UHGV virus genome: UHGV-1611552
Source: a virus
Direction: 5' to 3' (one strand)
DNA: 13,283 nt
The translations under genes were made by a program, and so were the position numbers. The notes below the pieces were generated by a model. It was not told the DNA's origin. It saw only the letters and a program-made list of their open reading frames with translations, and searched no databases. Within the stretch, counting starts at the first letter, position 1, and each line of letters begins with the position of its first letter. This document shows positions 1-4,416 of the stretch, piece after piece.

Positions 1-205
1 GCGGGAATCCTTCCACCAACAGAATAACGCTGTACTGACCGTACTCAACGTCCATACTGTAACGCCCGGCTTCATCCGGATTTTCTGAGGCCAGCGTGTT
101 CACCACCACCGTGGTGCTGTTACGTTTTGCTTTCAGCTGGATTGTGCAGTTCTGTACCGGTTTTCCTGTGCCGTCTTTCAGTACACCTGAAATCTTTACT
201 GCCAT
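1..205 (-). CDS. stf: Side tail fibre protein Stf, N-terminal fragment (gene runs off the window edge at position 1)
   Basis: Minus-strand ATG at 205..203 preceded by GGGGTGAAT (SD-like). Hand translation gives MAVKISGVLKDGTGKPVQNCTIQLKAKRNSTTVVVN..., matching the N-terminus of lambda Stf (orf-401) as I recall it. No stop within the window, so the CDS is partial. Position 64 nt downstream of lom matches lambda. Confidence 0.8.
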   Translation of the reverse strand, partial: MAVKISGVLKDGTGKPVQNCTIQLKAKRNSTTVVVNTLASENPDEAGRYSMDVEYGQYSVILLVEGFP

Positions 206-214
206 ATTCACCCC

Positions 215-243
215 ACAAAAAAGCCCGCCTGAACCGGCGGGCT
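215..243 (-). terminator. Rho-independent terminator downstream of lom
   Basis: On the minus strand: AGCCCGCC-GGTTCA-GGCGGGCT (8 bp GC-rich stem, 6 nt loop; plus coords 222..243) followed directly by TTTTTTGT (plus 215..221). Lies between the lom stop (270..272) and the stf start (205). Confidence 0.6.
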
Positions 244-269: not shown

Positions 270-869
270 TCAGAATTTATAACCGACACCCACGATGAAA
301 CTGTTGGTACGCCAGTCACCGCTGCCGGAGCCTTCATAAGCGACGTCAACGGCCACGGATTCGGTCGGGTTAAACTGCACGCCAGCTCCCCACGCCAGAG
401 ACGTGTTGCTGTGGCGACCGTCATCACTTCCGGTCAGCACATCGTGCGTTTTCCCCTTGTTGTCAGTTACGCGGAGATAATCCCCGGAGAAAGTCGACAC
501 ACGGCTGTAAGCCACACCCGCCATCGCATACGCGCTGAACCATTCATTCACGCGTACAGACGGCCCCGCCATCACGCTGAACCAGCGGTTACGCACGGAA
601 TCTTCATGCCAGCGGGTATCGCTGTAATGGGTCAGCTGGCGATTCTTGTCTCCTGCATAGCTGAATGACGTCACCAGCCCCAGTGTGTCCGTAAACTCAT
701 AACGGTATTTCACGTTAATCCCGTTCAGATCATCACTGCCGGGAACGTTCGTCCGGGCATGAAGATACCCCGCGCTCAGCGTGGACTGATGTTCAGACGC
801 CCATGCAGGCGCACCGGATACGACCAGACAGATGGCTGCGGACAAAATGGCTGCACAAACTTTACGCAT
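270..869 (-). CDS. lom: Outer membrane protein Lom (Ail/Lom/PagC/Rck family 8-strand beta-barrel), 199 aa
   Basis: ATG at 869..867 with GAGAGG SD about 6 nt upstream; TGA at 272..270. N-terminal signal peptide MRKVCAAILSAAICLVVSGAPAWA; C-terminus ...AYEGSGSGDWRTNSFIVGVGYKF with terminal Phe typical of OM beta-barrels. Sits immediately downstream of J as in lambda. Confidence 0.9.
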   Translation of the reverse strand: MRKVCAAILSAAICLVVSGAPAWASEHQSTLSAGYLHARTNVPGSDDLNGINVKYRYEFTDTLGLVTSFSYAGDKNRQLTHYSDTRWHEDSVRNRWFSVMAGPSVRVNEWFSAYAMAGVAYSRVSTFSGDYLRVTDNKGKTHDVLTGSDDGRHSNTSLAWGAGVQFNPTESVAVDVAYEGSGSGDWRTNSFIVGVGYKF

Positions 870-892: not shown

Positions 893-917
893 TAAAAAAG
901 GCGCCATTTCTGGCGCC
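893..917 (-). terminator. Rho-independent terminator downstream of J
   Basis: On the minus strand: GGCGCCA-GAAA-TGGCGCC (7 bp stem, 4 nt loop; plus 900..917) followed by TTTTTTATT (plus 891..899). Lies between the J stop (937..939) and the lom start (869). Confidence 0.6.
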
Positions 918-936
918 CGTATATGGGTTATAAAAT

Positions 937-3900
937 TCAGCTGATACTGATGCCTGCGGTGGCTTTCTTCATCACCACAACCAGCAAATCGCTGATACTT
1001 GCTGTGGGATACCAGTCATTTACCAGCCATGCTGACACCGAAAACTCCAGCGTCATGTGGCCGTGACCAGCTGGCATATCAATAACACCACTGTAAATCA
1101 GCGTATTATCCAGCGCGGTACGGTTATAAATTTCAGCACCATTTTTCTTCACTATCAGGCGGCATGACGAATAAATATCGTTATTCTCCCGCTCATGTTT
1201 AGCGCCGCAGAATGCCACCGCTGGAATAACAATTTGCCTGTCAAAAGGCTGATCGTCATAAATCCTGACGGTAATGGTCCCTGATGGCCACCGCTCCGGT
1301 GCCCGGGAGTCCCGCGGGAAAGCCTTACCCACTGTTTTGACAATATCGCCTTCAATCTGATTGGCTGACAGTTTCCCCTTAATCTGACAGTTCTCATTAA
1401 TCGTGACGTTGTTGAGCGTCCCGGAGTTCGCATTCACACTGCCACTGATATCCGCATTTTTAGCAGTCAGCTTTCCGTCCGGTGTCAGGGAAAATGCCGG
1501 TGGATTTCCACCGCTGGTAATGGTGGGGGCCGTCAGGCGTTTCAGGAACACGTCGTTCATGAATATCTGATCGCCCTGACCAACAAACATCGGTTTTGTG
1601 TTGCCATTCGCAGGATTAACCATCGCAATCCTGTCCGCCGCCAGCAGCACCTGACTCTGCATGCCGTCAGGGGTGTTCTCAATACCGGCACCAATACCCG
1701 CGATATAAAGGCGTCCGTCCTGCATCTGCTGCAGCTTCACAGCCCACATGCTGTTCAGGTTATTATTTGTATCAACCTGAACCTTCTGTATCTGCTGAAT
1801 TGCCGCACTCTGGTCTTCCAGTTTCTTATTGACGGTCTGCGTGATTTCATTGCTGACATCCGTAATGGACGTCCTGATTTCAGCCAGGTCAGGCGCAAGC
1901 TGACCGTTATCAATCTGCGTCCACAGCTCCTGAGCCAGATGGGTTTTCCCTATCTCGCCTTTGAAAAAATCCAGATAGCCGGATGCATCATCACTCGGCT
2001 GACCAACAGCCTCCACGAATGCCGATTTGCCAACGGTGTTCACACTGCGAACGTAAAAATAATAATCATGGCCCGGTTTGATATTGATACTGGCGGCTAT
2101 CCAGTACAGCGCCGTGCCAAGATAGCGGGCTGTGGTTTCAACCTGCCTGATATCGGTAATCCGCTTTTCCGAGAACCAGAACTCAAACTGTACCGTCGGA
2201 TCATAAACCGCAAGATGCGGCGTGGCGGTTATCTGAAAATAGCCCGGCGTCAGCTCAATCCGCGACGGCACTGCAGGTGCGGCAATCCGGAACGATACCG
2301 ATGCCGGATCGCCCTGCTGCCCCCACGCATTTACCGCCCGGACTGTCAGCCTGTAGTTCCCTGGCGCCAGTTGCGTGAAGCGGTATGTGGTTTCCGTCGT
2401 CCGGGCCGTGCTGACCAGCCGCTCACTGCCGTCATCCGCTGCCACGGTCAGGCGAAGCAGGAAGCTCACGCCCTTCACCACCTTCGGCGTGTCCCAGCGC
2501 GCCAGCACCTGATATTCCCCGCTGTCTGCGGTGACTTCGGCGGTCAGGTGCTGCACCGCTGGCGGCGTGACACCATTCACCGTGCCGCTCTGGTCGCCGT
2601 CAAAGTGCGCCCCGTTATCCACGATGGCCTCTTTTTCCGGTACATGCTGCACGGCGGTGATGGCATACGTGCCGTCGTCGTTCTCACGGATACTCACGCA
2701 GCGGAACAGGCGCTGGCGCAGCGTCGGCAGCTTCAGCCCCCATACGCTGTATTCAGCAACACCCTCAGGAACACGGCTCACTTTTACCTTCACGCCGTCG
2801 GTGACGGACTGAACCTCCACGCTGACCGGATTGCCACTTCCGTCAACCAGGCTTATCAGCGTGGTGCCGGAGGATGGCAGCGTGATTTCACGGTCGAGCG
2901 TCAGCGTCCGGGTCTGGCTGTTCACCGCCAGCACGCGCCCGCCGGTGCTGATCCCCGCATAGTCATCATCGCAGATTTCAATAACATCACCCGGCACATG
3001 GCGAAGCCCTTCGGCACCCACGCTGAAATCCACGGTCTGCGTCTCCAGCAGCTCCGTTTTAATCAGCCACAGCCCGGCGCGGTGTGCCTGCCCCCGGCTG
3101 GTACAGCCAAAGGCATCCATCTTCGTAACATTACGACCGTAACGGGCAATGGCCTGCGTATCTTCAACAAGCTCTGTCGCCGTCTCCCAGCCGTTGTTCG
3201 GGTCAATCCAGTTCACCTCAACGGCATTATGGCGGTCCTTCAGGGCGCTGAAGCTGTAGCGGAACGGCGCGCCATCATCCGGCATCACCACATTACTGCG
3301 GTTATAGGTCCACACCTTATCCGACGGTCGGTCCTGCACGAACGTCAGCGTCTGCCCGTTCCATACCGGCATACAGCGCATCGCCGAGCAGAAATCACTG
3401 AGCACATCCCACGCCTTGCGCTGTGTGGTCAGCCAGGCATTACAGGTGATGCGCGGCTCCGTGCCGCCAAAACCGTCCGGCACTGACTGGTCGCAGTACT
3501 GGCCGATGACATACAGCGCCCATTTATCCACATCCGCCGCACCAAGACGTTTCCCCATGCCGTAGCGTGGATGGGTCAGCATATCCCACAGACACCAGGC
3601 CATGTTATTGCTGTATGCTGGCTTAAACGTTCCGTCCCAGATACCGCTGTATTGCCGCGTCTGCGGGTTATAGTTCGACGGCACCTGCAGAATACGCCCG
3701 CGCAGATGATAATTACGGCTCACCTGCTGGCTGCCGAACTGCTCCGAATCCACCTGTACGCCGACCAGTGCCGTGTTCGGGTAGCACTGTTTCACATCGA
3801 TGATTTCGGTGTATGACGACCAGAGCGTTTTGTTCTGCAGCTGGTCTGTGGTGCTGTCCGGCGTCATCCTGCGCATCCGGATATTAAACGGGCGCGGCGG

Positions 3901-4416
3901 CAGGTTATCCACCACCACCGAGGCCAGATACTGCGAGGTGGTTTTGCCCTTAATGGTGATGTCTTTTTCCGTCACCCAGCCACCGTTACGTTGTATCTGA
4001 ACCAGCAGGCGGACTTCCGACGGATTCCTGTCTCCCTTTGAGGTGGTTTCCACCAGTGCCTGTACACCGAAGGTAAAGCGCAGACGGTCGATGTTTGCCG
4101 ACGTAATGGTACGGGTGATCGGCGTGTCATATTTCACTTCCGTACCCAGCACCGTCTCGGAGCCGGAGGATTCAAATCCCTCCGGCGGTGTCTGCTCCTG
4201 CTCACCGGCCCGGAACACCACCGTGACGCCGGATATATTGGTATTCCCCTCACTGTCCAGCACCGGCGTACTGTTCAGCAGCACGCTTTTTAATCCATCC
4301 ACCGGACCTTCAACCGGCCCTTCGCTGATGGCATCGATCACACTCAGCAGCTGCGTGGACTTCAGGTTGTCCTTCGCTTCGCGCGGGGTATGCCCCTTAC
4401 TGCTGCCTTTACCCAT
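937..4416 (-). CDS. J: Tail tip / host specificity protein J (central tail fibre), 1159 aa
   Basis: ATG at 4416..4414, TGA at 939..937. N-terminus [34 protein letters not shown]... matches lambda gpJ as recalled. It is the largest ORF and sits 60 nt downstream of I, as in lambda. Length differs from the 1132 aa I recall for lambda J, and the distal third appears divergent. Confidence 0.95.

Follow-up and report, generated by a model that had tools for sequence, protein, structure and literature searches.

Organization of the tail locus

The window analysed here (the whole stretch of 13,283 nucleotides, from UHGV virus genome UHGV-1611552) is a lambda-type tail module encoded on the minus strand. 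From the head-tail joining genes (Fi/Fii) to J it is collinear with lambda, at 96.6% nucleotide identity over 11.4 kb (blastn), and the open reading frames of the window, together with the annotated neighbours in related loci, give the order ...H-M-L-K-I-J-lom-stf. J, the tip attachment protein or central tail fibre, occupies a single open reading frame of 1159 amino acids (937..4416, minus strand). It is followed by lom (270..869, minus strand), which encodes an Ail/Lom outer-membrane beta-barrel of 199 amino acids (Pfam Ail_Lom, E=2.8e-123) and is present as a non-lambda allele, and by the start of stf, the side tail fibre gene (1..205, minus strand), the translation of which starts MAVKISGVLKDGTGKPVQNCTIQLKA and which continues beyond the window. 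The stf start shares 87% nucleotide identity with that of lambda, and related loci annotate a tail fibre at this place.

A consensus scan for promoters and terminators across the J-lom region returned only terminator-like hairpins, one with a T-run in the gap between J and lom (899..918, minus strand) and one 3' of lom (222..243, minus strand). Phages 434 and 21 have an annotated terminator at the same J/lom position. The presence of strong hairpins on either side of lom, and the matching annotation in 434 and 21, suggests that lom is transcribed apart from the late tail operon. The scan for a sigma-70-like promoter for lom on the minus strand of the AT-rich 3' end of J found none, and the total number of sites was that expected from shuffled sequence.

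The closest relative of the window in a complete genome is a prophage in E. coli 210205630 that adjoins bioA/ybhB (locus L002, 2626-4450). This is the classical lambda attachment locus, and the window may derive from a lambda-like prophage integrated there.

Comparison of J with lambda J

J is longer than its lambda counterpart, as the initial annotation had stated (1159 versus 1132 amino acids), and the two proteins share 84% amino acid identity overall with 29 gap positions (BLASTP). The domain order of lambda J is preserved (FNIII-A_GpJ, Phage-tail_3, Ig_J, Ig_J_second, Phage_Tail_Tip and Ig_GpJ_C), with all six Pfam families scoring above their curated cut-offs, and the protein matches the solved lambda J structure 8iyk at E=0. 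Judging from the 97% identity of the hub to solved lambda J, the protein would form a trimeric tail-tip assembly and act as the trigger for DNA ejection.

Identity to lambda is distributed very unevenly. Residues 1-815 are 97.4% identical at the amino acid level and 96.2% at the nucleotide level, which bears out the annotated near-identity of the N-terminal two-thirds. Residues 831-900 are 36% identical at the amino acid level and include 28 extra residues; residues 951-1010 (including ...NANSG) return to 97% amino acid and 92% nucleotide identity and are the recognizable lambda block that had been described between foreign segments; and residues 1011-1159 fall to 42-43% amino acid and 53% nucleotide identity. 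Uniformly high identity to lambda J that includes the C-terminal 250 residues is thus contradicted by the alignment. The initial annotation had set the break at around residue 830. Non-lambda segments do follow from there on, but the break itself lies slightly upstream: the unbroken blastn match to lambda stops at window position ~1920, or residue ~832, whereas identity in 60-nt sliding windows declines from residues ~801-820. We place the breakpoints at residues ~806-821, ~945 and ~1005. In the sliding table, nucleotide identity falls from >90% to <60% within about 60-90 nt and then recovers to 93-98%, and the two genes are further distinguished by an 84-nt indel. An assembly artefact was ruled out as a source of this mosaic, as the same distal third of J is found at 100% identity in several complete genomes.

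The distal part of J had also been described as AT-richer, and sliding-window GC content agrees, with values of 0.466 for 937-1200 and 0.446 for 1740-1860 compared with 0.599 for 2251-4416. This had been taken as a sign of exchange, a reading that did not hold. The drop starts within lambda-identical J, at residue ~720 (window ~2250). A comparable but smaller drop is seen in lambda J (0.535 for residues 721-1132 versus 0.592 for residues 1-720). The receptor-binding domain (0.493, versus 0.551 for its lambda counterpart) is the only part of J that lies clearly below lambda. Because the distal J of lambda is itself lower in GC, AT-richness does not mark an exchange; it is mostly a general trait of distal J and not a scar. 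We note that the GC-rich part of J contains an antisense open frame of 515 amino acids (1939..3486, plus strand). Lambda J has an equivalent antisense frame of 564 amino acids (locus L001, 10436..12130, minus strand) that is unannotated in lambda, and the frame is most likely an artefact of codon bias and not a gene.

Modules of the J protein

To resolve the protein into modules, we aligned J in a ten-phage panel that comprised the window, lambda, 21, 434, 2G7b, PhiR55_1, PhiR46_1, vB_EcoS-640R1 (640R1), Stx2a_1447 and the prophage of E. coli 210205630 (CP015912). Domain names follow the lambda structure (PMC11101478). Residues 1-805 (2002..4416, minus strand) consist of the hub domains and two FNIII/Ig domains and are of the lambda type, with 97-99% amino acid identity to every other member of the panel except Stx2a_1447, to which identity is 74%.

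Residues 806-945 (1582..2001, minus strand) comprise the alpha-helical shaft and the upper beta-prism fibre. Here, amino acid identity is 38-60% to lambda, 434 and 2G7b, and 95-100% to phage 21, PhiR55_1, PhiR46_1, 640R1 and CP015912 (99% to phage 21). Two shaft alleles can be told apart in the panel, a long one in the window, phage 21, the PhiR phages and 640R1, and a short one in lambda, 434 and 2G7b. Phage 21 and the PhiR phages, the tips of which differ, match the shaft block of the window at 98-100% nucleotide identity.

The long allele contains 28 residues that are missing from lambda, 434 and 2G7b, within a stretch delimited by alignment gaps at residues ~837-867 (1816..1908, minus strand). 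This insertion falls in a gap that Pfam leaves unassigned, between Ig_J_second (716-818) and Phage_Tail_Tip (872-1000). The corresponding gap in lambda J is the alpha-helical shaft of the solved structure, residues 809-861, which flips upon receptor binding and partly becomes beta-sheet (PMC11101478). The 28 residues equal four heptads, in which hydrophobic occupancy of the a and d positions is 0.75, compared with 0.15 elsewhere. A single-sequence AlphaFold2 model of residues 801-1159 places helices at 812-878 with low confidence (mean pLDDT 45.7). From the heptad pattern, the position and this low-confidence model, the insertion is predicted to be helical. We also considered that it might be a duplication, and rejected this, as it showed no significant self-similarity to the flanking sequence or to the lambda shaft (local scores 13-17).

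The lower fibre, residues 946-1010 (1387..1581, minus strand), is a linker that is conserved across the whole J panel and is of the lambda/434 sequence type in the window. Other phages that combine the long shaft with the same tip class carry a linker of the FMNEVFLKYL... type instead. The linker includes the position equivalent to lambda amino acid 964, the fusion point of engineered gpJ chimeras. In 60-nt windows, its nucleotide identity is 93-98% to lambda versus 82-93% to the other long-shaft phages, and the linker of the window is a third, small recombination patch between two larger blocks.

The remainder of the protein, residues 1011-1159 with the stop codon (937..1386, minus strand), is the receptor-binding domain (Ig_GpJ_C), or tip, which belongs to what we call the 1A2/Sakai/PhiR55 class. 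Amino acid identity of the tip is 42% to lambda, 45% to 434 and 68% to phage 21, rises to 91-95% for PhiR55_1, 640R1, 2G7b, Stx2a_1447 and PhiR46_1, and reaches 100% for the E. coli 210205630 prophage. The fold family is narrow: of 1.84 billion cluster representatives, 139 match at E <= 1e-3. A protein homologue search with the distal 359 amino acids returned many partial E. coli and Shigella entries that are 99-100% identical and named 'host specificity protein J'.

Measured against lambda gpJ (P03749; PDB 8iyk, 8xcg and 8xcj), the protein of the window thus has the same gene position, the same plan of hub, FNIII domains, helical shaft, beta-prism and Ig-like tip, and an identical linker (lambda 923-980). 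It differs by a shaft that is 28 residues longer and by a tip with indels at the loop hotspots.

Module assortment and recombination

Shafts and tips are combined in several ways across the panel. The long shaft is joined to the tip class of the window in the window itself, in PhiR55_1 and in 640R1, and to a 21-type tip in phage 21; the short shaft is joined to the tip class of the window in 2G7b (1131 amino acids), and to their own tips in lambda and 434. The window tip therefore occurs with both shafts, the long shaft with two tip classes, and the lom type of the window with two tip classes as well. Both features expected of recombining modules, sharp breakpoints in conserved flanks and differing module combinations, were found in the ten phages. 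As 2G7b carries a short shaft with the window tip and phage 21 a long shaft with another tip, shaft and tip have been reassorted by recombination.

These observations support the initial proposal that J is mosaic and that its host-range end was replaced by recombination: the nucleotide steps are sharp, the alleles are separated by the 84-nt indel, and the modules assort independently among phages. The proposal of a single 'host-range segment' held in part. Recombinational exchange stands, but it concerns the shaft and the receptor-binding domain as two modules that can be exchanged separately, with a conserved linker between them. The lom gene had been called divergent, and it does share only 44% amino acid identity with lambda lom, compared with 94% with 434 lom. 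The suggestion that tip and lom were exchanged together did not survive the comparison, as phage 434 has the lom type of the window and a different tip; lom type is thus untied from tip class, and there is no fixed cassette.

Could the divergent blocks have arisen without recombination, by fast point mutation under diversifying selection in one lineage? The specificity region has been reported to evolve fast and under diversifying selection (PMC6646904), which is what such an origin would predict. Point mutation is hard to reconcile with the steep fall and full recovery of nucleotide identity to lambda over such short distances, with a shaft block that is nearly invariant at the nucleotide level among phages with differing tips, or with 2G7b, in which the other shaft is joined to the tip class of the window. 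Moreover, the tip has diverged to 53% nucleotide identity, that is, at the synonymous level, next to flanks at 96%, which selection on the protein alone cannot yield. We consider this origin very improbable. The mosaic, with its sharp junctions and differing module combinations, is therefore the product of homologous recombination within the conserved flanks and not of gradual divergence.

Exchange of the J specificity region as a module has been described before. A survey of 1207 J homologues concluded that residues 960-1132 circulate as an independent module, with four loops prone to indels, and left further indel peaks elsewhere in J unexplained (Maddamsetti et al. 2018, PMC6646904). The tip block of the window is one example of this module, and its J is an ordinary, known case. 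The 28-residue shaft indel is probably among the unexplained peaks of that study. What we add is small: the shaft indel is placed in the helical shaft that refolds, and both of its alleles are frequent and show no link to tip class. It is tempting, though doubtful, to see the two-allele polymorphism of 28 residues and four heptads as a functional tuning element. If it were one, it might adjust how far the fibre extends across an O-antigen or capsule layer, or the threshold at which DNA ejection is triggered; the variation in shaft length may instead be neutral.

Allele frequencies in E. coli

We counted the alleles in 5426 complete E. coli genomes, accepting matches over at least 80% of the query. 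The window-type tip was present in 3365 genomes, with a median of 2 copies and up to 10, and is 100% identical in ATCC 8739, UMNK88 and others. Both shafts are widespread (long, 3558/5426; short or lambda type, 2635/5426), and window-type lom was found in 4225 of the 5426 genomes. The lambda tip, by comparison, was found in 96 of the 5426 genomes (98 with any match) and lambda lom in 97, all at an identity of at least 99%. Among the matches listed for the lambda tip, laboratory K-12, B and DE3 strains make up most of the genomes. The lambda block of tip plus lom (locus L001, 12455-13400) seems essentially confined to lambda itself.

With window-type tip and lom common and those of lambda restricted to about 97 genomes, lambda is therefore the outlier. 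The initial annotation had spoken of a replaced C terminus in the window, and this polarity has to be reversed: the alleles of the window are typical of the population, and it is the tip-plus-lom block of lambda that is rare. Laboratory lambda, the tip and lom alleles of which occur in <2% of complete E. coli genomes, is an unrepresentative reference in this respect.

Receptor of the tip

The lambda tip, the C-terminal part of J, binds LamB. Phage 434 and J proteins of the phi330/WGPS6 type use OmpC as their receptor. The native receptor of phage 21 is LamB; it gained OmpC with one mutation in J, and its use of OmpF also arises by mutation. Natural gpJ C-termini have been fused to lambda J at amino acid 964 (Brodel et al., Nature 2024, PMC11338833), and this fusion point falls within the linker, which is the natural junction region of the J of the window.

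Two of these chimeras, 1A2 and A8, are informative. We took their DNA from the supplement of that study as machine-read text that contains frameshift errors and used frameshift-tolerant alignment, so that all identities are approximate. On this basis, readable codons of the gpJ 1A2 tip are identical at 124/141 positions in the window, 134/141 in 2G7b, 90/132 in phage 21 and 59/137 in lambda. The window tip belongs to the 1A2 sequence class (approximate identity, about 88-92%), and it is not the LamB-binding allele of lambda, from which it departs in sequence and by indels at loop positions. The gpJ 1A2 protein shares its tip class and its fusion-point linker with the J of the window; it is a laboratory construct with the short shaft of lambda and a tip nearest to the 2G7b and 640R1 variants, whereas the J of the window is a natural gene. 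A8, the structure of which is available (9wca/9wcb), has a tip of the phage 21 class (82% to phage 21, 65% to the window) and uses OmpC (PMC11338833).

Delivery by 1A2 reached 98.7% in MG1655 carrying EDL933 ompC (Fig. 1b source data, PMC11338833) and 5% in wild-type MG1655, which has LamB and K-12 OmpC; in a lamB ompC double mutant it was either about 2% or about 98%, according to which OmpC variant the plasmid carried, and the 1A2 and A8 chimeras jointly covered 21 of 23 OmpC variants (PMC11338833). Supplementary file 10 of that study (source data for Extended Data Fig. 2) gives the same values for 1A2 and A8 in panel C (OmpC-EDL933) as in panel B (OmpC-MG1655), apparently through a copying mistake in the deposited data.

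A receptor other than that of lambda, as had been proposed from the replaced C terminus, is probable, as the tip falls in the class of gpJ 1A2, which uses OmpC and not LamB. By analogy with 1A2, we hold with moderate confidence that the window tip binds OmpC with a preference for certain alleles. Our confidence stops there because of loop differences within the class and because few substitutions can change the receptor. Between the window tip and 1A2-like sequences, about 9-17 of 149 positions differ, some of them in the hypervariable loops (ERENND versus EKEHTD, and VNDWY versus VNNWY); 640R1 has the ERENND loop of the window.

The J of phage 21 (OL657228, 1160 amino acids) has a long shaft like that of the window, with 95-99% amino acid identity over residues 816-950, and its tip differs by a 4-amino-acid deletion and a 6-amino-acid insertion in loops. 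Phage 434 (J, OL657226) has the lambda-type hub and a closely related lom; it differs from the window in its short shaft and in a tip of another class with several loop indels. As the OmpC-binding tip of 434 and the tip class of the window are distinct, OmpC binding appears to occur in at least two tip classes.

The tip might instead still use LamB, as in lambda and wild-type phage 21, in which case its sequence would have changed by adapting to variants of LamB or through immune or antigenic drift. All of the tips compared here belong to one Ig-like fold family (PF12421), and, after 1A2, the closest tip class for which the natural receptor is known is that of phage 21, which is natively LamB-dependent. 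The closer 1A2 tip, however, delivers poorly into LamB-positive MG1655 and efficiently only after the ompC allele is changed, and the low identity of the window tip to the LamB-binding tip of lambda is accompanied by indels at the loops reported as specificity hotspots (PMC6646904), which makes continued use of LamB improbable. Equally improbable, in our view, is that the tip uses OmpF, FadL, FhuA or some other protein of the outer membrane, or that it needs two receptors, in which case the likeness to 1A2 would not be transferable. Lambda and phage 21 can acquire OmpC or OmpF as a receptor through few mutations, and the window departs from 1A2-like sequences in loop residues. Against this, the receptor data on the 1A2 class point to OmpC, the ERENND loop recurs in 640R1 within a class that is otherwise 91-95% identical, and the joint coverage of OmpC variants by 1A2 and A8 fits tuning of the OmpC-allele preference within the class. 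Literature on PhiR/ECOR phages gave no receptor assignment for PhiR55_1, only a preprint on ManYZ and SNIPE; a preprint on the receptors of 255 phages deals with GpJ of the Drexlerviridae type and excluded the lambda tip as non-homologous.

For OmpC as the receptor, the tip trimer would dock on this trimeric porin rather than on LamB, probably preferring particular OmpC alleles. Receptor binding would then set off the same refolding of the shaft and opening of the tip as in lambda, with the longer shaft adding about 4 nm of predicted helix. Taking all of the evidence together, we think it likely that J is a normal, intact lambda-type gene with a distal third built from interchangeable population alleles, and with a tip that most likely binds OmpC.

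The J of the window implies no new biology. Its bearing is practical: a prophage with this type of J should not be presumed in annotation to use LamB, and the tip class predicts OmpC dependence and an allele-specific host range. This matters for predicting the spread of prophages, including long-tailed Stx phages that carry the same tip, and for the choice of tips in lambda-based delivery vectors. The tip class is present in these Stx phages and in the Stx1 prophage VT1-Sakai. In the latter, J (locus L006, 4001-7473) is annotated as two overlapping coding sequences, truncated through mutation, and this prophage is probably unable to make a functional tail tip.
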